Notes under the pieces: generated by a model
Told to the model about the DNA's origin: nothing
The model's database searches: none
The model's input: the letters and a program-made list of their open reading frames with translations, nothing else
From: Fistulifera solaris
Lineage: Eukaryota
Assembly: GCA_030295235.1 (NCBI GenBank)
Contig: AP026124.1
Location: 930,001 to 994,000, forward strand
Reading direction: 5' to 3'
DNA: 64,000 nt
Shown: positions 6,962-64,000 of the stretch, one piece after another
Layout: the number at the start of each line of letters is the position of its first letter
Position numbering within the stretch: position 1 is the first letter of the stretch
Program-made: the position numbers and the translations under genes

Positions 6962-9900
6962 ATGTTTGCTGACGAGCTCGCGGGAAACTCCAGTCGTAAG
7001 CGCGCGGAAGAAAACAAAGCTCGAAGATTGAGACTCAAGGCGCAACAACAGAAAAAGGCGAATGAGAAAATTGTGTCGTCGACACCCGTTCTTGTCGCTG
7101 ACGACGTAGCGTCGCTCGCCGAGGTTTCTTTATTTAAGCCAATTTTATCTACTCTATTGACAGAGCATACTACTTCTGCAGTGGCGAAGGACGTTTCGCT
7201 GACAACAGCAGCTCCTAAAACAGTGACTTCATCCGCACAACTCTCAGCCGTCGAGAAAGCTGAACAACAGCGTCAAATTCGAGCCGAAACAGCAAAAAAG
7301 ATCCATTCTTCGATAGTAATTCAAGCATTTTATCGCAGATATCACTGTTACGTTGCTTTAAGAAAGCACCATTTTGAATCGTTATCAAAACGGACACAGG
7401 ATATTAGTACGCTTCGTGAGATGCTGCTTCAAACAAAAAAAATCAGATATGTACCCCCACCCACGACCGCGACAGTAATGGTACGGCAGCTTCTTTTTCT
7501 GACTACGCGGGTCATACATGATAACAAGACGAAAATGAGAGTGAGGGTGAAACGTATTGACTCTCTTCGCGATTTGGATTTGCTTGCGAGTTTGATGAGT
7601 GACGTATTGCTGCCTGGGATGTCTAGTGTGGACGAGAAAGTTAACCCTATGTTGTCATGGCTTGCCACACAAGAAGGCCGAATACGAATGAAACATCTTT
7701 TGCGTGTCGTGATGGTTGCTATTTCGTCAAAAAAGACAAGTGGAAATGTTCTGGATTCACTTCTCCATTTTTTGCGGTCGGTAATCGGGCTATCGAAAGA
7801 TACATCAGCTCCGAAACAGGTTCAAGATTATTGCTTTTCGTTATCATTTCCCAACAATTTGCCACTCTATGATTCGTCGCCATCAGACGATCCTCCCTAT
7901 GCTTTTGAAAGCAACGATCTACATATGATTTCCATTTTGCGTTACTTCCTACTATTCATATCCGGGGGAACGGACCCCATTCCCCTAGATGCCATGAACG
8001 CACGCGAATCATGCATTGCAGAAACTTTCAGAAAGCAGGGTGGTGAGCTATTCTTGATTATTTTACATGCTGTTAATCGTGCTCCTATGTCGAACAGACG
8101 TGGATTCCACAGCCAGATTGTTACCATGCTGATGACAATACCCCTCTTTACATGGAAGGTATCTAGTGCTGCTTTAAATGTCTTGATACATACAAATGAT
8201 GCTTCGACAAAAGCACTCATTGTTCAACTTATCGAGTCATTCATGGAGCATCGGTCGATTGATTTGTCAAATGGTTATGTTAACGCGGTTTTGACGACTC
8301 AAGATCTTGTTCTGACAAGATGCCCAGCTACACCATCACAATGTTTGTTGGCGAATGTCGTTCAGTTAGGTCGAATATGCCCGACAACGAGCGGCATTGA
8401 TACCGACTTGTTTGACTTCAAGTCAACGGCCATTTTATTTTCGATGATATCAACGCTCGTAGAAGCCATTCCAGTGGGCACTTTCACGGCAAGAGAGTCT
8501 TGCGTCGAATGGATCGATGACGGACATGGTGTTCATAAGCCCGTTGTTTTGTCTCCGGTTGTTATTGAGCAGTGCAAAGCTCTTTTGGTTGATTCCCACG
8601 TGCGCCGAATGTTCACTGTAGCAATCGACACCGATATTTTGAAGACAGACGAGGTTTTACAGAAGAAAGATGAGAAGGACCTGAAACTTGAAGATGAAAT
8701 GATGAAAGAAGGAGCTACATCGGCAGCTGCGCTAGCCGCGAGAGAAGCCCGGATTGATCGGAGTAGAAGTTTTGGAACACAAGTAAATGGGCGCGAAAGT
8801 TGACCAAAGGCGTTGCAAATTTTCTCGTCAAAGATGGAGATGCAGGTGCAAAAGGAGCCACAATTACCGACAAAATGAGTACAAATGGGTTGAAAAATAT
8901 TTCTAGTGAGTCGCGACGATATGCCGAGGGTAGTCATTCGGAATATACGAGAGATCTGTTGTTTTGTCTGACCAGGACGTACGCCATTGTCATCGCGCGA
9001 TGGGGTGGTGGAGGCAAAAACGATATCGTTCAACGAAGACAGCTAGACCGCGCGAAGGGGGGAACAGGAGGTTGCCACCACTTCTGCAGAGCCCTGTGTG
9101 ATAAGCCTCTTGAACACTCTTTGCTTTGGAACCTCTTTGCTTAAAGTTCTTTGGGCTATGATACAATCCGATAGTCAAGTGGTTGCAGAGTTGCATTCTG
9201 TGATTGATCCGGATAAAGGGCGTATTCCGGTTCGCATGCTGCGAACTAAGCCCGCGATAATTAGTGATTCGAGATGTGACGGATGGACACTGCTATTCAT
9301 GTTTGTTTCATTACTTGGCCATGTGCTGATCGTAACTGACGATGTTGAGCTCTACGATATGGACAAACCGCTTCCTCTCCACCAGATCAGACAGTGCATA
9401 CAATTTCTGAAGAAACTCCTTTATAGAGCATGTTGCCTCGACGACTTGTCTATTGCACAAAGTTCTACGTACTTTGGCCTTGCTTTGATTACCGCGTCAT
9501 CGAGAGCGATGAAAGATCTGTACGATCGCTCTAGTCGACGACCCCTCTGCACACCCAAGCTTTGGATAGTCTCTGATTTGATGGAAAGCGAAATCCGAAG
9601 TTGCAAACGGCATGAGGATTTTACGAGTCTACTTCATCTCCCTGTTCTACGATTATGCCCATTTCTTGTCTCTTTCAAGCGCCGACTGAAATTGTTCGAA
9701 TGTATTATTACTACTAGTCGCATTGAGATACAAGGCGTGAACGATGGAAACCCTTTCAACACGAACCCTTTAAAGCAAGGCATACCTGTCCGCATTACAC
9801 GCGGGCGTATCCTCGAAGATGGACTTGCCACCATGAACAACTTAGGATCTAACATGCGCCAACGTATCGTCGTGAATTATTACAACGAAGCGGGAGTTCG

Positions 9901-10881
9901 AGAAACCGGAGTTGATGCAGGAGGTCTCTTCAAAGAATTTTGGACCGACCTATGTGCTATCGCTTTTGACCCAAATTACGCTCTCTTTCGTGTCACAGAT
10001 GGTGCTGGCGATTGTATGTACCCCAACCCGTCATCTGCAGCTGCTCATGGTACTGATCACATAACTCTCTTTGAATTCCTTGGCCGCATACTCGGGAAAG
10101 CTCTTTTGAAGGAATCACGATACATCCACGATTTGCGCACTTTTTTCTGAGCTTTCTTCGCGGAGACTACAACTATCTTCACATGCTACCAGATTTAAGC
10201 ACCGTCGATCCTCAACTGTACAACAATTTAATGTTCTTGAAGACCTACGATGGCGACGCCAGAGACCTGTGTCTATCCTTTACCGTTACCACGGATGACT
10301 TTGGTGGTACGAAAGAAATTCCGTTGGTTCCGAAGGGTGATACCCTCGAGGTGACAAACGCAAATAAGTTACGATACATTGGTCTAGTTGCCAAGTATTA
10401 TGTCGTGGATCGAGTGAAGGAGCAAAGTGAAGCGTTCACTCGCGGGTTGTGGGAAGTGATTGATCGTTCGTGGTTGCGAATCTTTAACGAGCCTGAATTA
10501 CAGGTTTTAATTAGCGGAGCATCGGACGGCAGACTGGATGTTGAAGATATGAGAGCCAATACACGGTACGTTGGCGGTTTCACCGGGCTCGATCGTACAG
10601 TGACTAGATTCTGGAATGTTGTTGCTCGATTTGAGAGTAAACAGCAGGCAGATCTGTTGCGATTTGTCACAAGTTGCGAACGTCCTCCTCCTTTGGGTTT
10701 TGGGAGCATGAATCCTCCCTTTACTATCCAGCGCGTCGGCATATTGCGAGACGATGATAAACTCCCAACAGCGTCTACATGTTTCAACATTCTGAAACTC
10801 CCTACATATAGCAGCGAGAAAGTCCTTCGTGATCGACTTCTACTGGCGATTCAGTCTGGAGCTGGATTTGAATTGGCGTAG
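6962..10881 (+). CDS. HECT E3 ubiquitin ligase, UBE3B/UBE3C (UPL6/7)-like with N-terminal IQ motif; split by about 3 frameshifts
   Basis: IQAFYRRY IQ motif; ETGVDAGGLFKEF; FLGRILGKAL; LLRFVTSCERPP; LPTASTCFNILKLP catalytic Cys; terminal AGFELA. Confidence 0.92.
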
Positions 10882-21642: not shown

Positions 21643-23926
21643 CTAATCTACCTCTTCCACACTTGGGCCGTCATCGACGCCATCGAGGTCTTCTCCCATA
21701 AAATCATCGTCGGCGTGAGAACCGGAGGCCGTCCCTGCACTTTCGTAAGCTTTTTTGATGATCGGGTTGACAATCGCTTCAACTTCTTTTTGTTTATTGT
21801 CGTATTCAGCTTTTTCAGCAGCAGGGTGGTCCTCTAGCCATACCAAAGCGGCCTCCACCGTTTTAGACAGCGTTTCTCGATCATCCTCATTCAATTTCCC
21901 TGAAAGCGAATCACTAATTGAATTTTTCAAGTTGTACAAATAAGCTTCCAGTTCGTTTCTGGCCTGCACTTTTGCCCTTTCCGCTTCGTCTTGCTCGGCA
22001 AATTCTTCGGCTTCTTTTACCATTCTCTCGATCTCGTCCTCGGACAAACGGCCTTTTTCACTCGTGATGGTCAACGTCTCGGACTTGCCAGTCCCTTTGT
22101 CAGCTGCAGAGATACTCAGAATACCATTGGCATCAACATCGAAGCTCACTTCAATTTGTGGCACACCTCGGGGAGCGGGAGGAATGCCACCAAGCTCAAA
22201 CTGGCCTAGAAGTCGATTCGACTTTGTCATACTTCGTTCGCCTTCAAAAACCTGGATGTTCACACCAGGCTGGTTATCTGCGTAGGTTGAGAACACTTGA
22301 GACTTTTTGACAGGAATTGTTGTACCGCGTTTGATCAGTGCTGTCATTACTCCACCAGCAGTCTCAATTCCTAGTGAGAGCGGCGCAACATCTAAGAGCA
22401 GCACATCTTTTGTCGCCTCGGAAGCGTGACCACTGAGAATACCGCCCTGAACGGCAGCACCGTAAGCCTGTTTGATAATAAGCACAGATGAGAAAATAGG
22501 GCTGGCTTATCATTTGCCACAACACACAAATCTTGAGCTTCGGAAGTAACTTGATCATCAAGAGACACCTGAAGGTTTTGTCCGGTAACTACATCGGCCT
22601 TCAGGATCGCACACAGTAGCCAAGCGTTACGGGTTATCGTCATCAACTCAATAAAGAAGCAAAATACATGAACGCAACGTACCACGGCTTCATCTGGATT
22701 GATTCCTTTGTTCAAAACCTTGCCACCGAAATACTCCGTAAGCATTTCTTGAACTTTCGGTATCCTCGTAGATCCTCCAACTAAGATAATCTCGTCGACG
22801 TCGTTTTTGCTCATTCCAGCATCCTTCAAAACTTGCGTAACAGGGATCATTGTCTTTTGAATAGATCCAGATTCAATTCTTCGAACTTTGCGCGAGAAAT
22901 GGTCGTGGTGAAATCCACACCATTGGCGAGGGCATCGCAATCGATGGTTGCCGACGTTTGCGTCGAAAGAGTTCGTTTGGCCATTTCGCATTGCTTTCTC
23001 AGTCTTTGCACGGCCCGTTTGTCATCCGAAACATCAATACCGGACTGTCGTTTGAACTGGCTGATACAATACTCCATGAGTCTTTGATCGAAATCTTCTC
23101 CTCCCAAATGTGTGTTACCGGATGTCGCGCGCACTTCAAACACTCCATGATCGATAGATAGAAGCGTTACGTCAAATGTTCCTCCTCCCAAATCAAAGAC
23201 TAAGATGTTTTCTTCTCTATCCTGTTTGTCTAATCCGTACGCAATCGCCGCAGCGGTGGGCTCATTAATGACACGGTCAATTTGGAGGCCGGCAATCTTC
23301 CCAGCATCCTTCGTCGCTTGTCGCTGAGCATCGTTGAAGTACGCGGGAACTGTCACAACGGCATGCTTGACCTCACAACCCAAGTAGGTTTCCGCAGTCT
23401 CTTTCATTTTTCGCAAGACCATCGCACTGATTTCCTCCGGCGCAAACTCATATTTGCTGTGTTTCTGTTTCAGTTCGTTGTCTAGTTTCAATGTTGGTTT
23501 CCCGTCTTTACCAGCCGCTATTTCAAAGGGTAGTAGTTTCTTGTCTTCCTGAACCGTTCGATCTGTAAACTTCCTGCCAATGAATCGTTTTACATCAAAC
23601 AACGTCCCCGTAGGGTTGGAGGGAGCTTGGTTTTTTGCCGCATCTCCCACCAAGCGCGAACCGTCTTTGCAAAACGCCACATAGGATGGCGTGATACGAT
23701 GCCCTTGTTCGTTCGGGCACACGTCGACTCTCCCGTTCTTCCACACCGCCACACAAGAGTAGGTCGTTCCTAAATCAATACCGATGCAGGGTCCGTCGAT
23801 GGTCGAACCGGACGCCCCGCCCCGTAACTTCGCGACAGCATTTAAAGACTGTCTCGAGCCCCACAGGGAAGAGGCATTTTGTAGGAAGAAAAAAAGTAAC
23901 GTGGAAGTCAGCGATCGGGTGATCAT
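21643..23926 (-). CDS. HSP70: Hsp70 with N-terminal presequence and C-terminal EEVD (probable periplastid-compartment Hsp70); intron 22468-22682, frameshift near 22855
   Basis: [37 protein letters not shown] and [10 protein letters not shown] signatures; ends GPSVEEVD. Confidence 0.95.
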
Positions 23927-24242
23927 GATGATTTATTTATGAATGAATAATGCAAATGCTGCACGGCAGATTTTCGTTTTAAAAGAAAGTTCATCCCCCA
24001 ATTCCACGTGTACATACCTCACGGTGACCCTCTCTAGTATACAGATTGTTTGTAAGCAGTAAAAGGAGTGCGCCGTGGTAGTCATCTGTATTCCACGTGG
24101 AAACGTGTCCTTATTCGTCGCCATCTGCGGGACTTGTGAGATGCGATTGCGGTTCGCAAAATGTCGTCGTAGCTCGATAAATATCGGCAAAGTTACTCTC
24201 GGAAGCAACGGATCACTTTTGGTGCAAACGACACAGCCATCT

Positions 24243-33709: not shown

Positions 33710-34441
33710 CTACATTGTCATCATCCTGTTCCGCTTTCGTCCAAACAAACAGAGCAAAAGAAAAAGAACGGCGCACGTTCCAAGAAGTATTCCATTCCTA
33801 GCGAAGAATATTTTGCCGGGTGACAACTGCATATTCTTATTGCTCCATGGAGCATATACAAGGCCGTTATTGTCCCGTCCTGGGCATTCCATATTCACCG
33901 CCCCTAGATTAGATCCATAGTCCATTTGTGAGGAAAACGCAAGCTGAACTAAAGGATAAAAGTGCCTTCGATCCTTGCCATCCGGGGTTCCTAGTTTCAA
34001 ATTTGTCTCGAAACTGTAGGTTCCTTGTCTCGTGCAATCACCACCAATGAAGTCTTGGCAAAAATATGTCGGTTTAATTGTGAATACGAGATTTGACTCG
34101 TCATCGTAAACCCCCAGCGTGATGAAAATGTTTTCGCCGTACTGTAAATTGTCGATGACGCGGACTGTGCCTAAAATATTCATCGTGTCACCATAATTGC
34201 ACGTCTCGGAATTGCGATTGCCGCCATTTCCATAATAGAAAGTATAAGGACTGTCGCAGGAAACAGATAAAAAGGTCATGCGAACGACAGAGTTATCGCA
34301 CACGGAGAGTCTGTAGCTGGATCGTCCGTATGGATTGTAATAATGGTTGTTTCCGCTGTTGTAGTACGCCGCCACGGACCGGAGCGCCAAAGCAAGGGCT
34401 AATAATCTCCGTAACGTAAAAGCTGCTTTCGTACAAGTCAT
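33710..34441 (-). CDS. Uncharacterised Cys-rich type-I membrane protein (paralog B)
   Basis: Signal peptide, N/Y-rich leader, CDSPYTFYYGNGGNRNSETC motif and C-terminal TM GILLGTCAVLFLLLCLF. Confidence 0.78.
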   Translation of the reverse strand: MTCTKAAFTLRRLLALALALRSVAAYYNSGNNHYYNPYGRSSYRLSVCDNSVVRMTFLSVSCDSPYTFYYGNGGNRNSETCNYGDTMNILGTVRVIDNLQYGENIFITLGVYDDESNLVFTIKPTYFCQDFIGGDCTRQGTYSFETNLKLGTPDGKDRRHFYPLVQLAFSSQMDYGSNLGAVNMECPGRDNNGLVYAPWSNKNMQLSPGKIFFARNGILLGTCAVLFLLLCLFGRKRNRMMTM

Positions 34442-34593
34442 TTTATTCCTGATCTTTGGTTATAGGGGGTTGAGATGTCATGGGTAAAAGCTGCCCTGTG
34501 ATTTACAAATAATGGCGTCCATTTTAAGGAAAAATGCTCGCCAATCGCAAGCCGGCTCCCAATTACATCCAAATTATTTAGGCGCTGTGTTTT

Positions 34594-34854
34594 GAAACGG
34601 GGAAATCCTCTTTTTCGGTCTTGACCCCTTTGTCCGTCCCGAGTTTCGAACCGATGACTTGACATTTTTCATTAGTGTACAATCCCGACTTTCGAACAAC
34701 TTTGGGCCGGTACATTAATTTACACAAACTCTACGCTTTCCCGATTTTCGACTAGCCCGATTTTCGGCTCTCTAGTAAGTTTTGTAGCCCGATTTTCGGC
34801 TCACCGAGATTTCTCTGGCCCGACTTTCGGTTCATCGGATTGCCAATGGCCCGA
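34594..34854 (+). repeat. Left TIR of MULE
   Basis: Starts GAAACGGGGAAATCCTC. Reverse complement of 38758-39017, with one substitution and one homopolymer indel seen by eye. Confidence 0.95.
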
Positions 34855-35249
34855 CTTTTGGCTAAATATACATCAAAGCTGTGTTTTTGTATTTTTAAAA
34901 AGATTGGTCAGGTCTACAAGAATAGGATTATTGAATGATTTAATATGGTTTTGAGGGGCGTCTGCAAGGCTTGCAATGCAACAGACAGAGAAACTTGGAA
35001 GACGACGCTTCATAGTCGTGTGCACGTTTTGCCGTGACTTCTTCTTTACGGGACTAGTTTCAGCCCTGCAGGTTTTTCCGTTTTTTCCCAACTCTCAACG
35101 AGCAGGTTGCAACTTCCACCTGAAAAACACTACCATTAATACAATTTATACGTTAAATGTATTAATGGTACCAATATTACACCTTGCCTACAATAATACC
35201 ATCAACCTTTATCAAAGCGGTTACACTACTTTATCACCAAACCGAAATA

Positions 35250-36430
35250 TTACATCAAATGCGACCAGTCGGAGATTGTCACCTGGTTGGTCGCCATACA
35301 AGTTCCATGATCCGTCAACAAGCATTGGGCGCCCCATATGTCAAAAAGATGTCGGCGTAAAGGCATACGTAGCGCCACAATTCCAATCGTCCTTCTGTCG
35401 GAAATTGTCAGGTACAGGGAATCGATGGTAAGTCCAACGTGACATGTCTGGAATTTCTGGTCTAACTTTGTTTAAGCCCCCGTGACACGGCGATTGGCCT
35501 CTTCTTGCTCACTCTTCATCAGACGTATTCGCCACAAAGACCCAAGAGTTTGTGCATGGTCAAAATGATCGTAATCTTTTGAATCAATGGAATAAATCTC
35601 TTCCTTTTCACTGTCAACAATCATTATCCACCAGTGATCGCCGCTGCAGATTGGGAACAGGTGAAGGCCTTCATTGTCCTTGTCGTCTACCGGGGACATC
35701 ATTCTTAGTGCCTTGGCTATCCAATCCAGAGCAAGATTACCTTTACTATCCCGTTTGTTTTCAAGTGACATCAAAACAATTGACCTGTGGGCAAACACTT
35801 TTGGGCAACTGTACATCTTTCTCTTCCATATCCCAATGAACGCGTCCACCATCTTATCCGAAAACCAGGATTTCTTTCCCGCTTTCTTTGGAAGCAAAGA
35901 AAGCTATCAGTGGTGAGGACTATATGTTCATCCTCAAGTGTAATACAGACTACTGCACACTCCTGTCCATTTGCTGCCCGTGGTCGAGGGATTTCCCTCA
36001 TCAGTTCATCTAGAATCATCTCGGAACATCCAGGCTCATGGTAAAATGCGTCAGCTTTCCCTTCCCTGTTCATCAGTCTCTTCTCACGCACTGTCTCCTT
36101 TAGATAGGTACTCAGTCTTTCTCTTAAATTGTCAATGAGATTGGCCACCGCAATTCCTGCATTCCCAGCATCAACTAGAGCGGGTAACGGCGGGTCTTCA
36201 TCCATGGAGTTGTCATCTATCAGCTCAAAATAATCCTGATGGCTGCCTCTTCTTGGTACTTGCTCTGTCACTTTGAGATAGTATTCATGGTCTTGTAGTA
36301 GCATTGTGACATGCTCTTGTGTCAAAAAGAAGTCCTTGTATTTCAATAACAATCTACTCATCACTTTTTCTGATACCACCGCATGACGTTGTCCTCCGAA
36401 TATGGAGGGGCTTTGAGTCGGGCATGTCAA
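35250..36430 (-). CDS. Ulp1/C48 SUMO-protease-like coding region of the MULE (frameshifted; 3' end approximate)
   Basis: WFSDKMVD; LFPICSGDHWWIMIVD..IYSIDS (His, Asp). QKDDWNCG (Gln, catalytic Cys) is read at 35374-35397 in another frame. Confidence 0.8.
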
Positions 36431-36642
36431 TTTTCACTAAAGGAGAATCAAGGAATTCTGAGCCATTGCTTGAACTTGCAGAATCACCGGAAGAGCTTGA
36501 GCTACTTGAACCCGAACTTGTAGAACCACTGGCAGAGCTAGTGCCTGCCCCGTTAGAGTTACTTTCCATACCATTTGTAGTAGCACTGTCGTCACCCAAT
36601 GCACTATACATTTTGGCCATTGCACACACCATCGTCTCTTCC

Positions 36643-38574
36643 TTATCCATGGGAGGCCGGATTCTTCAGACAAAAGGTACCGCCCCAAGAAGGATTGAGC
36701 AATGATCTTACATACTGGCTGTGTGACAGTGACTCGGTCGCATTACGGCATAATCTACGGACCAATTCATAATCGTGTTGTAACAAACAATGCACATGTG
36801 CGCACGGGTAGGCATACATGTCGGAATAGAAGCAACAGCACTTGATGACAGGCTGACCATTGTGTTGTGCAACTTTGACTATGTGTTCTGTGGTAGTCGC
36901 ACCTTGTCTTGAATTAATACTTGCGCCAAAAGTCGTTGTCATAGATGTAGGTCCGTGATTTGGTGCAGCGAGAAGATTTCTCTTTGCCGTCGCTGAATAA
37001 GCGAGCTCCAACGCTTAGAAGTGACACACCATCCGTCCTTTCCACAACTTCAAAGTAGCTCAATAGTTTCTTTGGCAACCTGTAGCCACATTGAAATAGC
37101 TACTGCAGGTGGACTTGAGCGTATGTTGTGGTGCGCTAACCAAGAGCATGCCGATTCCACACGATTTGTTCGGCAGAATCCATACAGTGGCATTTTAATA
37201 CCAAATGGAATCTCATCCTTTAGGTGTCTTGTGTTAAATTCATTCCACGAGAGAATCTCTCCTAATAAGACCTGCGTAAAAAGTGCAGTAGTCTTCGTGC
37301 CATTCACTATCGGGGTAACTTGCCAAGTTTCCAAACACACACCAGTGTCGTGGATGGATGCCTTCGACAAGATACCGGACAATGTCAACTCCGTCCTCCG
37401 GTCGGAGATTGATAATGTTTTCACATGCGCTAATGAAGGATCCAACACTCCGGGGCGCTTTTGCATATCACCAACAAGATTACGCACAGTAGCGGTCTCT
37501 GGGTTACTAGCCTTCAGATCAAATATGTGAGCCAGATTGCGATTAATATGCTCAAGACAGTATTTGATTGAAATTTTAATGTTGTACCGATCAAGCAAAA
37601 CTTTAGCTGCACCCAAAATGTGGCCTCTGTCGGTAAAAATAGGAATGCTTTCAATATCAATGCCTGCTGCGCGCAATGATAGCAAAACAAATACAAAGTG
37701 TTCCACACTTTCGGTAGGGACCCACGCTATTCCGATTTGGATATTACCACCCGACCCGTCAGCGGCCACAATTGGAATAAGAACTCCGCCATAAGAGTGT
37801 GTTTTGCTAAAAGTTCCGTCAATGAATAATGCCGGGATGCAAAGCTTTTTAAATACATGCGCTGCATCTGGGATGGTAACAAAAGCACGGTAGAAGCAAT
37901 TCATATCATCTGTCTGAAGAACAGCTAGCAGTATTGTTGAGCTCGGCGTAGCGCCTGAGATAGGAAGGAAGAAGCAAAAGCCTCAAACTATCATCCTGAC
38001 GAAGCAGTGCACGAAAATATAGCTTCAAGCGAGTGAACTGGTTTCCATTGATTGGAAAAGTGTAGCCGGCATTCAAGAGCATTTGTTGAGCTTTTGCACG
38101 GTTTGATGCGTTTTCAAAATTTTTTGAGCGAAGTGCGATTTCGAAGAATTGGTAGAGCAAGGGGCAACTCTTCAAATATTCCATTGCTTTTCCATCGAGT
38201 TTGCCCTTTTCATTTAGAGCAAGTGCTTTTGTGGGCTGGCAACTGATGCAGTGGAGAAATGTGGACTCCTCCGTGAGAATAACGCTATTCTCACTTTTAT
38301 CTTTTCGGAACTTGAGGCAAAAACCCTTGTTGGGGTCGATAGTCTGACAGTTCTGGCAATAATATGTGGGATACTTTGAACTTTGCTTCTGGCAACGTGT
38401 TAACTCGTTCCCTTCATACCACATCGAAATACCCCGCATGAGTTCGGAATGATCTCCACGAGCAATTGGTCTGTTCAGAAGATGTAGACGGTAATTGAAC
38501 GGATTCACGCATTCAAAGCCATATCGTTCCATGATAGGCATGTATACAAATGGGCTGCTGATTGTAAACGACAT
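36643..38574 (-). CDS. MULE transposase (DBD + DDE + SWIM), interrupted by at least 2 frame breaks
   Basis: N-terminal YYC..C..FC..H.C WRKY/MuDR-like DBD; LFIDGTF (D1); IFTDRG (D2); YCLEHINRNL (CxxH); TNRVESAC (E); CCC..YPCAH SWIM. Confidence 0.88.
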
Positions 38575-38757
38575 TTACGTGAAGGAAATGAGGAGATAAG
38601 CAGGGGAAGTGATGGCGATGGAAGGGTCAACAGCGACGAAGGATAAACCAGACGCAAACAATGTTGGCCATCCGACTTGGTGAAAAAATGGTTACTCGTA
38701 ACGCACGTTTATACGTATTGAAACTCGGGTACGTTTGCACATGATCTCTCCGGATAA

Positions 38758-39017
38758 TCGGGCCATTGGCAATCCGATGAACCGAAAGTCGGGCCAGAGA
38801 AATCTCGGTGAGCCGAAAATCGGGCTACAAAACTTACTAGAGAGCCGAAAATCGGGCTAGTCGAAAATCGGGAAAGCGTAGAGTTTGTGTAGATTAATGT
38901 ACCGGCCCAAAGTTGTTCGAAAGTCGGGATTGTACACTAATGAAAAATGTCAAGTCATCGGTTCGAAACTCGGGACGGACAAAGGGGTCAAGACCGAAAA
39001 GAGGATTTCCCCGTTTC
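38758..39017 (-). repeat. Right TIR of MULE
   Basis: Ends GAGGATTTCCCCGTTTC; inverted copy of 34594-34854. Confidence 0.95.
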
Positions 39018-39260
39018 TAAGATGGACTTTTAGCTTGTCGTACCACTAGTCGCAACGGACTTCAGCTGCCGGCGACTACTGTACGTCATCCCTTCTACGT
39101 CTACTACGGTACCAGGTACCGGTACCGGTACCTGGTACAGTACCTGGGGCCGAAATTGCCACCAACGTTACGCACCATCAAAAGAGAACAAAAACAAGCA
39201 ACACAACATACCGTTCATGTCGTGTTACAATTTGCGGTTTGTTGACCCCTATTCAATACT

Positions 39261-40756
39261 ATGCCCAAAAATGATGACTCAAATATAGTTTCAGATTTAC
39301 CGGAAGACTGGGAGCGATGCCATGCTTTTATGGAAAGAAGAAGCGATTCTGTCGACAGCAGCGAGCGTCCGACAGTTCTTACTGTGGCAATCATCAACAT
39401 TTGGCTACCACTATCAACACAAAGCGCAAACGCGTTCCTTGCCCGTTAGATTCGTCACATCTTGTGTTTGAAGATTCCATTGAAAAGCACGTCTTAGTAT
39501 GTCCTAAAGCAACGAAGCAGAAAGATCAAGAACGGCAGTTTTTCTATCAGTCCAACATTAATGCGGGAGGTCACGGAATGCTTGTTGAAAGCGCAAGGTC
39601 TATCGATTTGACTCGAGCGAAGCGTCTTGCGCAGCGAATAGTATCCGTACATGTGCAAATCTTTGGTGGGGGTACTTCCTTTGCCGGAATTAACGAAGCA
39701 ACGGAACTCCTCGACTTGTCCGAGCCTGAAATGACGAAAGGTCTGCCGGAAGCCATTGCGGTTCATCGAATTAGATCGGGAGGATATCGTCACGTTCTTC
39801 AACAAGCCAGTCTTCTGGGACATTTGCGACGGATCGGAGCTTATCAAACTACTACAAAACGACGACGCCTCATTGAACTCGGTGCTGGAAGAGGAATGTC
39901 GGGACTTATTATGGCGGCAGCGTCGTCTGGTTCGGGTGTTACGACGGATTTGATTCTGGTGGAACGAAGTGGTTCGAGAGGAAAAGCGGACAAAATATTG
40001 AGAACCTTTACTACGAAGGAAACGACTTATCCATTTGATTTGAAGTCGGTCTCGTGGAAGCGTGTGCAGTGTGATATCGCTCATGTGGACTTGGTGTCTC
40101 TTCTGAATCATCATCCCAGATATAATGACGCTCATCAAATGAGTGAAGATTCAACAGACGAACTAGTTGTGGTGGCAAAGCACCTTTGTGGCGTGGGCAG
40201 TGATCTGGCATTAAAGTCATTGTATCCGATACGCTCTCGCGTCACAGCTTGTATATTTGCAACGTGTTGCCATGGTGTATGTTCTTGGAATGGATATGTC
40301 GGCCGCGATTATCTTCGAAAAGCGGTACAAACAGAAGAATTGCCTTTCGGAGAAGCCGAGTTTGATCTTGTGCGAAAATGGGCCGGAGCAGTCGTAATGG
40401 AACCCACAATCGACGGCTCGGATGATGATGAGGGAGACGATAATCGTCATTATACATCTCCCGGCAATGATAAGAATGACCTATTGAAAAGCGTAAGCAT
40501 CACTGCTGTTGCAGATGGACTGGACTGTGGCACCCGAGGTCTCAGTCGAGCTTGCCAGCGTTTGATTGACTACGGTCGTCGTGAATATATTCATCAAATT
40601 TTGGGGAATGCATCTGATTTGAATGTTGAAATGCTGCGGTATACACCGGACGAAATTACACCGCAAAATACTGCCCTTATAGGATACCGGAAGAGTCTAT
40701 CACCGCTGTCGTCGGGGGTAAAGAGGACCGCTAATTCTATGTCCGAGAGCATTTAA
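39261..40756 (+). CDS. TRM13: tRNA:m(4)X 2'-O-methyltransferase TRM13; frameshift near 39335
   Basis: C...KKRFC..YCGNH CCCH finger; RKRVPCPLDSSHLV..KHVLVC CHHC finger; IELGAGRG; AKHLCGVGSDLAL; ATCCH; RLIDYGR; TPQN. Confidence 0.92.
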
Positions 40757-41073: not shown

Positions 41074-42970
41074 TTAACGCGCCAGTCCAACGGGTTTGTT
41101 CGTCAAGGGTTCACAAGCGGCCCCATCGATCGTACTGGAAACACGTTTATCATTGGCGACAGGTTCGCAACCATCGTTGCTTTGTGCCGGGCGCTTAGCA
41201 GGCCCTCCCTCTTCATTAGATCCTGAACCAATTTTCCTCTTCTCCTTCGCCTTGTCGTTTCGCAGGTCATGGAGCTTTTCAAAGTAGCTGTCGCCAATCA
41301 CCTGTCCGGTCACATAGTCCCCGCTGAAGCAACTCGAATCAAAGCGATCAAATGATCGCTCTTTCGGGGCAAGCTCCCGCAGGCAATTCTCCAAGTCATT
41401 CAGGTCCTGGTAGACCACCCAATCGCAGCCGATTTTCGCGGCTATTTCTTCTTCATTTCGATTGTACGCGATCAATTCATTTCGTGTGGGTATATCAATG
41501 CCATAAATGTTGGGATAACGGATCGGTGGGGCGGCCGAACAAAAGTATACTTTATTGGCACCTGCATCGCGCGCCATTTGAACGATTTCGTTCGAGGTAG
41601 TACCGCGTACAATGGAATCATCGACCAACAGAACATTCTTGCCTAGAAACTCTCGTTTGATCGTGTTCAACTTGAGACGCACGGACTTTCGCCGCGTGGC
41701 TTGACCAGGCATGATGAACGTGCGCGCAATGTAGCGGTTCTTGATAAATCCTTCACGAAAAGGACGATTCAAAACATAAGCTGCCTGTAAAGCTGATGTT
41801 CGGCTGGTATCAGGAATAGGAATGACCACGTCAATGTCGTGATCCGGGTACTGGCGCAAAATTTTCTTGGCCAATTTCTCTCCCATTTTGAGACGTGACT
41901 CGTAGACGCTGACACCGTCCATGATGGAGTCTGGTCTTGCAAAATAAACATACTCAAAGATGCAAGGCGAAAGAACCGATTTCGAGTGAACCATGCGGCT
42001 ATGGCAATTGCCTTCCATGTCCATGAAAATGACTTCGCCGGGTCGCACATCCCTAACAAGAGAACAATTACGTCATGTGAGATGAAAAGAGACGATAACC
42101 AAAGCACACATCGCAAATAATTAGCGTACCGAATTAACTGAAATCCTAGTGTATCAATCGCCACCGATTCACTCGATATGACATAGTCAAGCGATCTCTT
42201 GGCCGTGTCCATATGCGACGGAGTCCTGGGTATTCCTTCGTCGTCAAACGTCTCATCCGTGACCGTTGGAGACCGACGACAACCGAACACCAGAGGACGA
42301 ATACCATTTGGATCGCGAAAGCCGACGAGACCAAATCCGTTGACCAAATACAACCCCGCGTATCCGCCTTCGGTTTTGTGCATGACCGAACCGACAGCAC
42401 TGAAAATGGCTTCTTTCATGTTGAGCTGGTCCTTTCCCACTGCCAAAGTTTCTCTCGTCAATTCTTCCGAAAACAAGTTCAAGAGCAATTCAGAATCACT
42501 GTCCGTATTGACGTGTCGGCCAATCTCCGTCAATTGCTTGGCAATTTGTTCCGTATTCGTCAAGTTTCCGTTGTGCGCTACACAAATTCCGTAGGGGTAA
42601 TTGGTATACAGCGGTTGTGCTTCGGCACAAGAACTGGTTCCGGCAGTAGGATAACGGCAATGACCGACTCCGAGATGTCCCCGCAGCTCCACCATGTGAT
42701 GTTGATGAAAGACATCTTTCACCAATCCGTTGTCCTTGCGCAAATGCAAACGTCCTCCTTCCGAAGTGACCATTCCTGCAGCATCTTGTCCGCGGTGCTG
42801 CAAGACGGTAAGTCCGTCAAATATCATTTGATTGACCTGTGAAAGTAACGATGATCGTGTGAGCGGAAATTTCATAATTTTCGAATCGTACGAGCGTGAT
42901 TTGCGCATTGCTTTCATTTACTTACATGTTCCTTCTCGTTTGCTAAGAGTAGACCAATAATACCACACAT
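41074..42970 (-). CDS. purF: Amidophosphoribosyltransferase; introns 42837-42925 and 42053-42129
   Basis: N-terminal MCGIIG, LQHRGQDAAG, GHCRYPTAG, HNGNLTN, CIFEYVYFARPDS and LLVDDSIVRGTT. Confidence 0.97.
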
Positions 42971-57229: not shown

Positions 57230-60200
57230 ATGCAACCCGAACGTTCTTACCCGCTACCTGCGTATTTGAAATTCTGCCCTGGTGGAATCACCTACCACGG
57301 CGCGGCGCCGGATGACTTCTATCGTTTCTCCGAGTACACGGGCACGAACAAGTCAAACTCCCGCGGCAGAAGAGGTACGCCCTCTTCTGCTGTATCGTCG
57401 CCGCGTCCCTTGCTTCCCGATACTCTTCTCACGAAAGCAAAGCAGGCGGATGTACGACTCCGTCAGTACACGCTTCTTTCTCAGCCAACAGGTGCGGTAC
57501 CCGTCTTTTTACCCAGTCTCTCTATTCTAGCTGAGCAATGTTTTGGTCGTTTGACTGGTGTCCTGCCAACGCCGCTAAATCGTGGGCCGATGCTATGATA
57601 CTACACTACTTTGAATCAGCCCTAGACGATATTGCGGTCGTTAGTGAAGAGGATATTTACCGGAGCAAACCAATCGCTACGCAACCTTTGACTGGGACTA
57701 GCACCGCCGCTGTTTTGCTCCGAAAGATACACGAAGACGCACAAGCAGGGCAGGCTAGCGACTCTCTAGTTGGTCGCCCTCGACCTTGCGGTTACGTTTT
57801 TAAAAGGGGTGACATCGCGTGGAATTGTCGGACTTGCCAAACGGACGCCACGTGTGTGATTTGTGATACTTGTTTCAGGCATAGCGATCATCAAGGACAT
57901 GAGGTGTATTTTCATCGTACTTCACCCGGAGGATGTTGCGACTGTGGGGATGCTGAAGCGTGGAAATCGGAGGGATGTTGTGATAAGCACCGACCCTTAT
58001 CGAGTCCAGTCGGTCAAGAGCGACCATCAATTGAACTTGATCCTATGGAAGCAGTGGCGATGTCTTTGAAAGGTTTGAAAGATGGAATTGACACCGTCTC
58101 TTCTCATCCTGCTACAAAACTACCTCCCCGTCTAGCTGCTGCCCTGGGGGTTGTGATTGGAGCCGTTGTTAACTCCATTTTGGATGCCGTGGATGGTGCG
58201 GCAGTCGGTGCCGATCCTGTCCAATGGAAACGGCGCTGGGCTCACGAAGCCGCTTGCATTTATAATGGTGTTTCAAACAATGAGCAATACTATCTAGCTG
58301 CAAAGCATGCATTTGCAACCCCTGCTACTTTCGCCAGCAATCCTGCTCAAACGCTTCCAGAGTCATTTGACGTCCAACTGAGACTTCATAATGACGACGT
58401 ACACACTTTTGACGAAGTGATAGAAGCCTTGCACGGCGATCCTCGTATGCGAAGGCATATGGAAGACCCCGCTAGTATCTTGGTGCCAGTACGGGAGAAT
58501 GCAACCGAGATGACCCACCACGTCGATGCTGACGGACAAGTGACCGTCAAAGTGTACTCCTCCATATCGAATGCATTGCATGGGTTTAAAAGGTTGAAAG
58601 CTTCCGGACTTCATTGTGCTGTGGTTAGTAATGTCCAAGTTCAGATGGAATTGAGAGCTAGAGTATTAATCTCTTGGCTATCTGAGATTTGCGCTGCTCA
58701 TCCTGCTGCTGCAGCTCTTGTTGTTCACGCGCTTGTCCAAGTAGATCCTTTTCATGACTTGGGTGGAGCTCAGGTTTGGGCAGCAGCGAGAATGATTCCA
58801 CCGTGGATTGCATTTGACCAAACGGATGAGCCGCTGATTTGTCGACGAAGATTCGATGCTTTTCCACCGCATTTACACTCTAGTTATTTGACCCGTGAGG
58901 AGTGCGAGCTGTTGCACGGCATCGCGTCGGAAATGAATGCAACTGCTTTTATCTCTCTCACTGGAACGGAGCCAGGCTTTTATGCCAGAGTTCCATATCG
59001 CCTACCATCAGACAAGTATCGCAAGTCCCCGCATTCACTTTGGGGAACTCTACCCTCGCATTATTCTGATCCGGTCAGTCGCGATTCAAAACACCCTTTA
59101 CTTCGTCGTTTAATCACCGGTCGTTTCGATGTAGAGACAGCTACCTTACCGAACAAATTGACGGAATCTGTTTTCGTAGTAGACACAGATTTGCGGAAGC
59201 AGCAAAACCCAAAAATACTCACATCAAGTCTTTACACTCATAAATTGCCGGGCTTGCACATCATCAGCGGAATAGGTTCAGTGCGAATGAGCGAAATATC
59301 CGCGAGGCGTCCTCCTCTCCCGTATCCTATGCATCTCCGACACCTGTTGGGTATATCGTCGTTTCGAGCACCAGTTTCGCCGATCATGCTTCTTCTTCTC
59401 TTTGACCCATACCCTACAAAGCAATTGCGTGGGAGCTTGCATGTTCTATTCTTATCTCTTTTGACGGATTCACGATTCAAGTCGCGTTTTGCTGGTGCTT
59501 TAGGGGTCGCATACAGACCCTTGTGTACGTTGTTTTGCGCCGGCGTTGGCACGGAAGCTGATTCGCCCCTCCATTTCAGCGTTCAAATTTTTACTGCAGG
59601 AAGTTTGGTCAGGGCTCTTTGTCACAGAAATGCAGCAGAGAAACTTCTCCTTTCTGACCACCTTGCAAACTTTGTATTGCCGGAAGACAGCCATCAAAAT
59701 GAATCGTCGATTGGGGTCTTTGTTCCTCCGATTTCCCACGTCATCGTTCGATGTGTTCACACAAACCTTCTGGGAGCGACTCAAGAAATTAGTATGATTT
59801 TAAAAACACATTTTCAGGGAGTGACGAAAATAGCATCGACGGGGCCCTTCAACTGGGCAACGACAATTTACTTCCTGCTTTGACATATGTTGCTGGTGAG
59901 CATCCTCTGTTGACGCTCCTTCCTGCTGCCCACGACGATGGGTTCTTAGACTCTCGGTCTACTCGACATAAAAGGCTTCCTCACATTCTACGAGATCTCG
60001 AATATGTCATTGAAACCCCCGGGACTGCAATGCGTCTGCTTCTACCGCACAGGTTCCCTACGCAGTACGGGCCATCCTTGTCGCTGCGAGGGGAAGATAT
60101 CTTGCCATTTGCGTCGATTTTTGCTAGAATGTTGCGTTTGGCCCAAGGAATGGATACACAAAAGAGAAAAATTTCAGGAGGACACGTAGAATACGAGCAG

Positions 60201-63200
60201 AATAGATGGTTAGAAGCATTCGGACTTAGTTTGAATTTTGCTGGTACACGTGACGCTCTGGCAGAAAGTGCTTGCAGCTCAGTTGATCCATCTTCAGGTG
60301 ACATATCTCATCTGAAAGCCGTTCGTGAGGCCATTGGAACTTTTTTTTACCGCGTTACTAAGGGAGCTGAAGTTTTGGCTTTACAGAGAGAGTTTGCTAG
60401 AGACAGGACTTCCTGTTTCACCTTCCCAAGGCATCGACATTTCACAAGTCACATCTCTTCAGCGTAGTACCCTGCACGTATCAAGCTCTGAGTTCTCCGA
60501 TTACAGTGAGTCCGAAACGTTGGACGCCGTCGCACATTCAGCTCGACCGGTCAATACAGTAGCTTTGTCTTGCGCGACAGGAATTAAGATGACAGAGGCA
60601 CAACTGATTCTCATCGAAAACTCGTTAAAAGTTGCGGTTTCCCGGCAAGAATCCCATACACTAGACGATAGCCTCCCTTTTCAGACCGGTCCCCTGATCA
60701 CTGATTGGTTAAGAGTGCCTCATTCTCCTCTTGGTGGTGATGCTCTGTCTTTTCATCTGCCTCTTCACCGTGCTATGGCAAAGTGCATCAAAAGCATGTG
60801 TTCAGTGGTTGTTCCATCATCATATCGTGACTCCTTTCCGTCGACTTGGTGGCAATTACCTGTCCTTGATGACAACCAGTCTTCAGTCACTCAAATAGAT
60901 CAAGCAAGCTTCTCCCATCCTCTTGTATCAGTTCTTCGTTCGACGTTACGATCAGGCAACTGTAGAGTTAACTGGTCGTCAGGACCCGATTGTACCCCGC
61001 AAGAAGCTCAAAGACGACGTGCCAGATCAAGGGCAGTCTCTGTGAATATTGCTGTTGCAAAGGTGATACACTCGCTTGTAGACCATCCCCTTCGGTGTCT
61101 TGCAGCAGCACAACAAGTTGAACGTCATTTGTGGACAAGAAACGGCGGATCTTTGGCGGGCATGGCAATGAATTATTCAAACACTCCTTTATGTCGCTCA
61201 TTTCGGGATCTAGATCTTCTTTTGGTTCAACTTTCGGCAGCTGGCATGAGTTGTGGTTTGGGCGCCCGCCGGACTTTTTCGTTAATTTTGAGTCGCTTCA
61301 GCATGGATGGGTATTTGTGCGACCCTGAACGGCGCTCTGCCGTTGGTGCAAGTGGAAGCTCGTTCGTTTCACAACCATCGACTTGGGTAAACCCTCCACG
61401 TCTGCAGGACCCAGATCACGCAGTCATATTGGCCGAGTCTTTTTTTGCAATGATCTGCGTCCTCGTCACTGAACTTCCTCCGCCGCCTCCCGGTGCCGTT
61501 CTAGACAATGTTTCATTACGGCAAAGTATTCGCCGTGAGTTAGTCCACGCGTTACTTGCAGAGCCGAGATCGCACAGTGCAGCTATGGCAGCCGCGTCTG
61601 GAGGTATTTCCAGAAGGGAAGAAAGCGACGGCAACTCAGGATCTAGTGGTGGAGCTAGTATGTTTAGTGAGGCATTTGCTGCAGTTCTTGATGAGGTTGG
61701 CGTCCAAAAATCTCGCAGTGGTTCGAGGGCCGCCTCTGGACCTCCGATTTTTGAGCTGAAAGCTGAGGTTTGCGATGAGTACGATCCTACTTACTATCAC
61801 CTGAAAAGACAAGAACACCAGCACGCGATGGATATTGTTGAAAGACTTCGAAAACAAAAGCTTGGAAATGACAAGAGTAAGATAGATTCGACGTCGCTTC
61901 CGTTAGTGTGTCCACCTCCAAAGGCACATCCAAGATTTCTGCCTTGCCGGCTTGTGTTGCACCTTGATTTGATGGACGCTGCGATTCGGCGGTCCTTGTT
62001 ATTCGCATTGACAAATGGGTCGTGGTTACCACCCTCAGAGCCTACAACAACCACGGCAGATACGAATTCTGAAAAAGCTTCTAGTGATGACGGCGAAGTC
62101 GATGTCTCCGTTAGGGTAACGGAATCTCTCAGTGGCGCTGATGTCCCCGTGACCGCGTTTAACAGGAGAGTTCTTCATACACAGACGTCGGGGGCTTCAT
62201 TTTCGATTTCCAGGCGGGAAAACGAGACAATTCTTTTTCCAAAGAGGTTGTCGCTGCATCATCTGTATCTTTCCTTGAAATACTGCAGTTGCTTACACTT
62301 CAAATACATACCTTGGAAGAGTGCGCCTCGCTCCACCGCCTGCTTTCAAATCTGGACGATGAATCTCGACTATTGTCATCGGGATTGTCAATAAACTCAT
62401 ACCTGAGTCGCCTAATACATGTGCCGACTAGCCTCGCAGATGTCTGGGCACTTCGTCCACACCCGCATGGACCGCTGCAATCGAAAGGAAGTGGAGAGAA
62501 TCGAGGATCCATTCTTGGTCTTTTAATTGCCCTTTACGAGCATAGGTCAGATCACGGTGCTATCCTAGACTCGCAAGGAGGAGATCAAGTCGATGAAGGG
62601 CATGGGGGTGCCCGTGCACTTGCTTCCAGTGGCCTCAAATGGATCTTGAGGTTTGTTAATGCCTTAGTTGACGGTGCACCAGCTGTCAGCGCAGCAATAA
62701 GATCGGCGACCAACGGACTTCGAGAGATCAAAACGCAGGATTTCAGTGCTTTGTCGTGGACAATAGATGAAGAAGTGCGAAATATCATCCGAAGAATGTT
62801 GGCAAACCTGACTGACTTATGGCCAATGGAACGCAGCAAATCGGAGTCATCAGAAAAGGCAACACCCAAAGTATCCGAAGCTGGTAAGGCAGCCCAGAAG
62901 CGCCAGTTGGAGAAAATGAGGAAAATGCAAGCAAAGTTCGCTGCAACGATACAAGGTTTAGATGACGAGAAACAAATCAACGAAGCAGATACTGGAAGCG
63001 ACCAGTGTATTATCTGCCGCTGTGATGATGTTGATGGCGAGAACAACGGCCCATTAGGATTTTTAGGTCACGTCCAGCGCTCGCGGGTCCTCCAAATGCG
63101 TTTTACGATCGAAGCCGATAAGAGGAAGGGCGTCCCGCTTGATCTATCTCAGAGTTATCTCGTTGTCGGTCACAAAGGATGTCAGGTAAGTCGTCGTTTT

Positions 63201-64000
63201 GCTTTGCGCAATATGGCACTTTCATTTTCGCTAAGAATATCTTAAAGCTAAGAGAAACGGAAGCTATGGATTCTAGGCCTCTGACATGTTTGCCAAAAGG
63301 GAGTATTGTCACAATTCTCTCCCATAAAGTGTCCACAGAGTATGGGGTTCTATCTAGAAGAGTTTTCGTTCGTCACAGACCGGAAAACAACGCTGACGGA
63401 ACGTTAGCTGAGGGATGGGCTAGCATTCAATCCTCTCAAGGTTATGTAATTTTGAGCCCTCTGATCTCAATGTGCTTCACTAATTCGCGTTGGGGCAGTA
63501 CGCGCCCAGTTATCAAGCAATGTGGACACGCAGCACATCTAAGGTGCGTCGAGACGCACACTCTGTCTCTGCACCACCGAGCGGCGAGTGAGCAGACGTA
63601 TGATGGGCGATTTGCTGCAAATATTGACGACGGTGAATTTTTATGTCCGCTTTGCAAACAGTTGTGTAATATTCTGATACCAAGAGATAAAATGACTGAA
63701 GGAGACTCAATATTTATGGATGTAGAGGAGGTTTGTCCGTCCGGTAAATGTGAACTTTCAGCAGTCCGAATCATTTTGAGGAAAGGTTGCTCGGTTCACC
63801 TGACAAGCGCGGAAAGGGAATCTATGGCAAGCAAAGCTCTGGATCAATTCGGTTCTAAATTATATAGTGCCATGAACGTTCCGTGGGACCGAACAACCCA
63901 ATCTCAAAGAATGAATCAGCAAGAATGGCTTCGGGCTATTCAAATGTGGGATTTTGAAGACGTATCTAATGTTGATGGCAGTGTAAAGAATACGCAAGCA
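57230..64000 (+). CDS. UBR1/PRT6-like N-recognin E3 ligase; runs off the window end; several frameshifts, intron 63186-63247
   Basis: UBR box CGYVF..CRTC..CVICDTCF..H.GH..GGCCDCGD.EAW; ClpS-like LHNDDVHTFDEVI; SFHLPLHR; split RING CIIC...CGH..H..C...FLCPLCKQLCN. Confidence 0.92.

Follow-up and report, generated by a model that had tools for sequence, protein, structure and literature searches.

A Mutator-like element with a predicted transposase-Ulp1/SENP-type protease fusion in DNA most likely from the diatom Fistulifera solaris

Ulp1 domains have been described in Mutator elements of Arabidopsis, melon, rice, maize and grapevine, and their function there is treated as unknown in the parts of these two sources available to us (PMC2836005; PMC13317346). 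Peptidase_C48 is likewise recurrent among the non-transposase proteins of active plant elements with terminal inverted repeats (TIRs), according to the accessible portion of another study (PMC12973397). Among diatoms, Mutator-like elements (MULEs) include TpMuDR1 and two Phaeodactylum families, with no mention of Ulp1 in the available part of the source (PMC2806351). Here we describe a MULE copy at positions 34594-39017 (4,424 bp) of a 64-kb stretch of DNA, the whole of which was analysed and is referred to as the window. The element appears to contain a single gene for a protein of ~1,110 residues that would combine a zinc region, a DDE core, a SWIM-type finger, a linker, a conserved region and a C48 protease; we put the probability of this reading at about 85%.

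The element is delimited by a left TIR of 261 nt (34594-34854) and a right TIR of 260 nt (38758-39017) that pairs with it. The arms 34612-34854 and 38758-39000 are 100% complementary over 243 nt, without a single substitution, and the outer 18-19 nt extend this match outward to GAAACGGGG... at 34594 and 39017; the sole difference between the arms is a run of five T residues on the left versus four on the right. The terminal 21-mer of the TIR occurs at two sites in the 64 kb, both of them element ends, and two matches were obtained in none of 100 shuffles. Each TIR also carries six to seven copies of the motif CCCGAYTTTCG: 13 of its 17 matches in the window fall inside the TIRs, and the chance expectation for the whole window is 2.5. 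A motif scan located seven subterminal copies with at most one mismatch on the plus strand (34638-34860), three of which form part of ~31-nt tandem units at 34748-34841, and six mirror-image copies on the minus strand (38783-38974). These repeats are candidate transposase binding sites. No second copy of the element was found within the window by scans for the terminal 21-mer and for CCCGAYTTTCG.

The coding region (35221-38574, minus strand) runs from an ATG at 38574 to a stop codon at 35223-35221 and consists of 1,111 codons in 12 segments, close to the ~1100 aa estimated in an earlier note on this DNA. That note had proposed a TIR-bounded element of the Mutator-like class, from a diatom, that encodes on one strand and in this order a Cys/His region, DDE motifs, a SWIM finger, a Ser-rich linker and a C48 protease with the catalytic motifs HW, D and Q-x5-C-G; these points were borne out, the SWIM finger as a sequence signature and the diatom host as very probable, and a further conserved region was recognized on the minus strand between the linker and the protease.

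The DDE catalytic core (37155-37820, minus strand) has its first Asp at 37820-37818 (FIDGTF), its second Asp at 37631-37629 (FTDRG), followed by CLEH, and its Glu at 37157-37155 (NRVES), which gives the spacing D-63-D-158-E with a CxxH motif between the second D and E. In the numbering of P0013, an annotated protein discussed below, these residues are D89, D152, C176-x2-H179 and E310; those of FTDRG and CLEH are invariant in all six aligned proteins. The open reading frame (ORF) of the window matched the Pfam MULE family (PF10551) with E=1.9e-5 and 25.5 bits (cut-off, 27.6), and three related proteins, P0001, P0003 and P0013, did so with E-values of about 4e-5 to 8e-5 (23.4-24.6 bits), while P0002 gave no match at E<=0.1. 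Membership of the element in the MULE group is predicted from four features taken together, namely how the DDE residues are spaced, CxxH, the length of the TIRs and a Pfam MULE match with E ~1e-5.

Upstream of the core, an alignment of four sequences delineated an N-terminal region of the form C-x2-C ... H-C-x2-C (38239-38358, minus strand), in which C73, C76 and H108 are invariant in all four. This region probably represents a zinc DNA-binding domain, to judge from its sequence, and it matched no Pfam family. An atlas search yielded weak leads to FLYWCH and GCM (0.82 and 0.78, with scores not exceeding 0.85), and the AlphaFold2 (AF2) model built from the four-sequence alignment was too poor to use, its predicted local distance difference test (pLDDT) value being 53.5. 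Downstream of the core, a motif search found a SWIM-type CxCx10CxH at 36796-36840 (minus strand); the Pfam SWIM family had no match in the window and a weak one in P0002 (E=0.037). The Pfam check suggested in the earlier note gave weak results: MULE and Peptidase_C48 were matched, at 25.5 and 14.6 bits and in both cases below the cut-off, and SWIM was not. The SWIM motif is followed by a Ser/Gly-rich linker of low complexity, identified in the ORF list as a 103-aa open frame (36354-36665, minus strand), whose similarity to the relatives is of the low-complexity kind only. Directly upstream of the protease lies a conserved region of ~165 residues (35880-36379, minus strand) that aligns with residues 945-1128 of P0001 at 24% identity, within a linked set of high-scoring segment pairs with E=8.7e-62, and belongs to no Pfam family.

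The C-terminal module (35224-35879, minus strand) has its catalytic His at 35636-35634 (in HWW), Asp at 35585-35583 (the D of YSIDS), and Gln and Cys at 35397-35395 and 35379-35377, respectively (in QKDDWNCG). With the DDE residues, all seven catalytic residues of the element are intact. The fragment of the window matched Pfam Peptidase_C48 (PF02902) with E=0.03 and 14.6 bits, below the cut-off of 20.7, because the protease domain is split by frame changes, three of which fall within it; the cut-off is exceeded by P0001 (24.1 bits), P0002 (40.5 bits) and seven of nine short relatives. These short relatives came from a search with a 143-aa protease fragment of the window, which, out of 1.84 billion representative proteins, retrieved 10 with E<=1e-3. 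The best match was P0001; the other nine are 74-271 aa long, and none is a typical cellular Ulp1/SENP. The short relatives have in common the motifs FPxC...HWW...SxDS and Q-x5-CG, and all 10 rows of the alignment have the same His, Asp and flanking Ser residues.

When the profile of this family was compared with solved structures, the best matches were human SENP2 (E=6e-9), human SENP1 (E=5.6e-8) and yeast Ulp1 (E=1.6e-5), followed by chlamydial CE-clan deubiquitinases (E about 3e-3 to 8e-3) and the adenovirus protease (E=0.08). HW, DS and Q-x5-CG stand in register in the alignment of the profile to SENP/Ulp1, and P0002 alone could be aligned to SENP1 at HW, DS and QQ...CG. An AF2 model was obtained for a relative, P0005, and not for the protein of the window; its overall pLDDT is 55, with 70-87 in the catalytic core. 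Foldseek placed SENP1, SENP2 and Ulp1 on top with this model (probability 1.0, E-values down to 5.6e-5), at template modelling (TM) scores of just 0.3-0.4. On these grounds we accept the module as a C48 protease of the Ulp1/SENP type with a complete His-Asp-Cys triad and an oxyanion Gln, the activity of which is predicted.

The relatives bear directly on the relationship between transposase and protease. A search with the 310-aa DDE ORF in the class of longer proteins gave three relatives among 3,004 candidates. P0001 (1,337 aa) is 47% identical over the core and contains in a single ORF the DDE core, CxCxnCxH, a CCHC knuckle, a long acidic/Ser-rich linker and a C-terminal C48 domain; P0002 (1,429 aa, 41% identical) is also a single ORF and has the same architecture. 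The fusion is therefore real for the family, and the earlier note, which had raised the possibility that the ORF fragments make up one transposase-protease fusion, was right in this respect but not for the copy as assembled, which contains 11 frame changes. A word-based search with residues 1090-1337 of P0001 recovered only P0001 itself (one of 364 candidates). For the DDE core, the window shows 48% identity to P0001 and 41% to P0002; for the protease, the values are 46-48% and 29-30%, respectively. The near-equal identity to P0001 in the two enzymatic domains fits a fusion inherited as a unit. From one relative to the next, the two domains show parallel divergence; the fusion is therefore old and does not result from a recent capture of a host Ulp gene, as is also suggested by the protease fragment matching only 10 proteins, none of them a typical cellular Ulp1/SENP. 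P0001, P0002 and P0003 further have, between SWIM and the C-terminus, a zinc knuckle C-x2-C-x4-H-x4-C and a K/R-rich ...SNG... stretch; the spacer between SWIM and protease in the window is about half as long as those of P0001 and P0002.

In the class of proteins of similar length, the search gave three of 1,866 candidates, the best of them P0013, a 472-aa protein that NCBI lists as a hypothetical protein of Fistulifera solaris and UniRef as SWIM-type domain-containing. When the frames are followed, the translation of the window is 98-100% identical to P0013. Outside the junctions, ~463 residues show two substitutions, V/A and R/S; the two sequences differ mostly by private small indels. P0013 represents one further near-identical coding copy or version among public proteins. 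It starts at an internal Met (window position 38082), reads without interruption across the first five junctions (J1-J5) and ends in ...NPSWAVPFV, exactly as the window DNA would if the run of four G residues near 36690 had three, which creates a TGA. At this G4 run the frame of the window agrees with P0001 and P0002 and that of P0013 does not. The public gene model thus takes in 472 of ~1,110 codons, under half of the true reading frame, and lacks the protease. The GC content of the window is ~45%, and that of the F. solaris chromosomes is given as 45-46% in the accessible part of the genome report (PMC5935921). The host of the element is most likely a raphid diatom, F. solaris or a very close relative.

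The reading path that yields the ~1,110-residue protein was guided by homology; it has 12 segments, 11 frame changes and no stop in 1,111 codons, and the frames follow one another in the order -1, -2, -1, -2, -3, -1, -2, -3, -2, -1, -3, -1. A path chosen from stop codons alone has at least nine frame changes. In the earlier note the ORF fragments were said to abut or overlap, and overlaps do exist, but the path also changes frame 11 times. All junctions are on the minus strand. J1 (-1 to -2; 37925-37926, near 37925) is a place where, judged by the P0013 copy, the window lacks 2 nt; J2 (-2 to -1; 37452-37470, near 37460) is at CAAAAGCGCCCCGG; J3 (-1 to -2; 37244-37249, near 37247) is in a CTCTC run; J4 (-2 to -3; 37055-37059, near 37057) accounts for a TGA at 37050; and J5 (-3 to -1; 36924-36929, near 36926) is at TGGCGC. 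The position of J6 (-1 to -2; 36643-36665, near 36650) comes from open frames only, and J7 (-2 to -3) lies somewhere within an ORF overlap (36354-36433). J8 (-3 to -2; 35879-35884, near 35881) was placed by homology, and J9 (-2 to -1; 35474-35480, near 35478) falls in a G5 run. J10 and J11 (35333-35372, near 35372 and 35335) flank 13 codons in the third frame, YVCLYADIFLTYG, and account for an apparent TGA at 35341; these codons exactly bridge NCGA to GRPML and match P0001 and P0005.

Other interpretations of these breaks were considered and rejected. In-frame stops at 37050, 36643 and 35341 might be taken for decay, but they vanish when the frame changes are followed; introns are at odds with P0013, which spans J1-J5 without extra sequence; and a 55-nt GT-AG intron at ~35478, which would restore the frame, is contradicted by P0001, which codes through the interval, so that this break is a frameshift at the G5 run. 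Comparison of the sequences thus identifies the frame changes as indels and not introns. Of the 11 junctions, four were seen post hoc to be within 5 nt of a GCGC, a site with only 11 occurrences in the coding region, and most junctions have a CpG a few bases away; methylation-linked sequencing error, a mutational hot spot and chance are all candidates for this link.

Whether the 11 indels are sequence or assembly errors or reflect real decay is a matter of about even odds, and the identification of the element is unaffected by it. If they are errors, the copy would be intact in the cell, possibly autonomous and recently active. We give this nearly an even chance, considering that the 1,111 codons contain no stop and all seven catalytic residues are intact; that the comparison with P0013 shows five frame breaks but two substitutions in ~463 residues; that P0013 itself ends through a G3-versus-G4 difference where the window frame agrees with distant relatives; and that the TIR arms differ just by the T4/T5 indel. 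Host genes for HSP70 and a HECT protein in the window show 1-nt homopolymer frameshifts without an intron as well, and the published F. solaris draft is, according to the available text of its report, a de novo assembly of next-generation sequencing data only (PMC5935921). On the other side, the density of 11 indels in 3.35 kb far exceeds that in host ORFs, among which six with lengths of 1.5-2.3 kb have no interruption; of the five differences from P0013, four resemble 2-nt events and not classic homopolymer errors; and the lack of a target site duplication (TSD) better fits an old or rearranged copy.

Equally credible is that the indels are real and that this is a decayed, non-autonomous copy, mobile only with transposase supplied by another copy. 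Its excess of breaks over host genes and the missing TSD would agree with this, as would a linker that is shorter and lacks the CCHC knuckle of P0001-P0003. In a pseudogene with 11 indels, however, numerous substitutions and a few nonsense codons would be expected, and none were seen; moreover, 243 nt of the TIR arms are without substitution, and the second copy, P0013, differs almost only by indels.

Frame breaks in genes of the host were noted at several places in the window. The HSP70 gene (21643-23932, minus strand) is represented by two ORFs, the frame slipping by 1 nt in a run of four A residues near 22830 (DLFK|KTMIPV) with no extra sequence, which suggests single-base indel errors in the assembly; further on, the same gene also has a GT-AG intron ~230 nt in length. 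A HECT ubiquitin ligase gene (9047-10881, plus strand) changes frame at a T4 run near 10105-10117, without an intron, such that positions 2-55 of the HECT Pfam profile are covered in one frame and positions 52-305 in the next. The gene for a UBR-box/UBR1-like E3 ligase (57535-64000, plus strand) consists of five overlapping ORFs in differing frames, one of the switches being at or near a T8 run (60342-60349). The two ORFs of the PurF amidophosphoribosyltransferase gene (41074-42917, minus strand) match positions 11-196 and 205-431 of TIGR01134 with ~165 nt of extra DNA between them, so that the break probably marks an intron, not a frameshift. As host genes are also affected by single-base indels, annotation of this assembly from ORFs calls for caution.

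Several observations weigh against the reading of the element as a MULE with a transposase-protease gene. No TSD of 4-12 bp was found in a scan of the boundaries 34585-34599 x 39012-39026 (15 x 15), the lone direct repeat being a trivial 4-mer within the TIR; a TSD of about 8-11 bp is a criterion for MULE membership, and de novo insertions of a Phaeodactylum MULE have 9-bp TSDs, according to the part of the preprint at hand (bioRxiv 10.1101/2023.01.02.522487). With its 11 frame changes, the copy in the assembly cannot give rise to the fusion protein. The Pfam scores of the window itself for MULE and Peptidase_C48 are both below the curated cut-offs. One of the three long relatives, P0003 (1,165 aa, 34% identical), is a transposase without the C48 domain, and the CCHC knuckle is absent from the window copy in every frame. 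The rarity of protease relatives was measured with a query that holds only the N-terminal half of the domain. Finally, the activity of the protease, its substrate and a role of SUMO in silencing in diatoms are matters of inference only.

Elements of the superfamily move by DDE-mediated cut-and-paste and have transposase binding sites in long TIRs, as stated in the available part of the source (PMC3310237). In the protein described here, the N-terminal zinc region would bind CCCGAYTTTCG, of which each 260-nt TIR has six to seven subterminal copies, and excision and reinsertion of the element would fall to the DDE core. The tethered protease, in the interpretation that we prefer, would strip SUMO, or else a related ubiquitin-like modifier, off proteins located at the element's own ends. 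Its targets might include the transposase or else factors of chromatin or repair, and deconjugation might favour transposition or escape from silencing.

A different role for the C48 domain would be that of a self-processing protease which, like viral CE-clan enzymes, cuts the fusion to release the transposase. This possibility has some appeal, given that the domain is on the same polypeptide with a long linker and that the family also touches viral proteases, its profile reaching the adenovirus enzyme (E=0.08) and P0012 matching the poxvirus I7 family (Pfam C57, E=5.9e-5). SENP1, SENP2 and Ulp1 are nevertheless the best matches by far, and when the aligned linkers of the window and P0001 were inspected by eye, no Gly-Gly site common to the two was seen. 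The tryptophans of W-x-x-D and HW, which we take from the SENP literature to line the Gly-Gly tunnel of these enzymes, appear to be conserved in the relatives. We therefore consider self-processing improbable.

A two-gene arrangement, with the protease separate from the transposase like the captured ULP in an accessory gene of plant KAONASHI/CUMULE elements, is most improbable: the junctions between SWIM and the pre-protease region (J6 and J7) are placed by open frames only, with no close homologue, and the annotated model P0013 stops after SWIM, but P0001 and P0002 are uninterrupted across both domains, the frames of the window overlap without a stop-rich spacer, and the stop of P0013 is accounted for by its 1-nt shorter G run.

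Going beyond the reading of a single MULE-encoded fusion protein, it is conceivable that diatoms and some aquatic eukaryotes host an old, MULE-fused and transposon-specific SENP-like lineage that is needed for transposition, in which the element's own deSUMOylase, acting at the ends, would undo SUMO-dependent repression or regulate the transpososome; the family may then be active. We regard this as unlikely, if somewhat less so than self-processing, and an addition to it, that the clustering of indels at CpG/GCGC reflects methylation-linked sequence errors or repeat-directed mutation, is bolder still. The role of Ulp1 or OTU domains on transposons has been an open question since the plant MULEs and Ginger1, and an in-frame fusion in a unicellular, transformable alga offers a simple system in which a protease-dead (Cys-to-Ser) form could be set against the wild type in a transposition assay. 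If it is true that the family is still active in an oil-producing, transformable diatom, the role of a transposon-borne Ulp1 becomes testable.

As for the genomic setting, the element interrupts an intergenic region that would measure ~400 nt without it (flanks 34460-34593 and 39018-39316), between two diverging neighbours, a 249-aa ORF without a Pfam family (33710-34459, minus strand) and a gene for the TRM13 tRNA methyltransferase (39278-40756, plus strand). An atlas search with TRM13 led to broad eukaryotic clusters and did not narrow down the taxon. MULEs are known to insert close to promoters, and the intergenic position of the element fits this preference. Three plus-strand ORFs inside the element (34955-35431, 36310-36705 and 36997-37530) matched no Pfam family.

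Compared with the systems described so far, the combination of Ulp1 with a Mutator element is already known, and only the diatom setting appears to be undescribed. We found no MULE with Ulp1/C48 from a diatom or from Fistulifera in the full-text literature, a search that lay outside Repbase and Dfam. Zisupton, of the KDZ group, is named for the zinc finger and SUMO protease on its transposase. It constitutes a separate superfamily with 8-bp TSDs, as given in the accessible part of the source (PMC12730594), and membership of the element described here in Zisupton/KDZ was rejected, since Pfam gives MULE and no KDZ family and there is no 8-bp TSD.

The plant Ulp1 MULEs (Arabidopsis KAONASHI/KI-MULEs, melon CUMULE and those of rice and grapevine) are likewise members of the MULE superfamily with a C48 Ulp1 domain; according to the portions of the literature available, the domain arose there by transduplication of a host gene and belongs to a VANC-type accessory gene in Vandal elements, which are of the non-TIR kind (PMC13317346; PMC2836005). 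In the diatom element, by contrast, the protease forms the C-terminus of the transposase, the TIRs are 260 nt long and the protease is very divergent from cellular Ulp1/SENP. KAONASHI-type membership was accordingly rejected on account of the long TIRs, the single-ORF fusion in relatives and the distance of the protease from cellular Ulp1/SENP. Fusions of the same kind as that described here are the Mutator transposases with Ulp1 of hydra and lancelet, which have animal hosts and were compared by description only, from Repbase entries cited in the part of the source at hand (PMC2836005). Together with Ginger1, covered in the same publication, they mean that the novelty suggested in the earlier note does not extend to the combination itself.

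Two of the systems compared are diatom elements. The active MULE of Phaeodactylum tricornutum resembles the present one in having TIRs of ~200 bp, a transposase with MULE and SWIM domains and frameshifted copies, but it is 3.7 kb long, has 9-bp TSDs and carries as its second ORF a UBR-type E3 ligase; no Ulp1 is mentioned in the accessible text of the preprint, and the comparison is by description (bioRxiv 10.1101/2023.01.02.522487). Group 37 ('MULE-Diatoms') of Dupeyron et al. 2019 likewise comprises stramenopile MULEs with a single ORF and SWIM, and its TSD entry reads 'No TSD and not indicated'; its TIRs are 123-124 bp, however, and no additional domain is listed for it in the part of the paper available (PMC6446971). 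Another stramenopile mobile element with an Ulp1-related peptidase is found among the oomycete Cryptons with a C48 peptidase, which differ in being tyrosine-recombinase elements, with the CryptonS peptidase described in the available excerpt as an additional protein (PMC3212892).

In its layout, the diatom protein can be compared with Ginger1, which according to the portion of the source at hand also has an N-terminal transposase and a C-terminal Ulp1 (or OTU) domain on one protein, with a Gypsy-integrase-like DDE core versus the MULE core of the diatom element. Both raise the same question, that of the involvement of ubiquitin-like pathways in transposition (PMC2836005).

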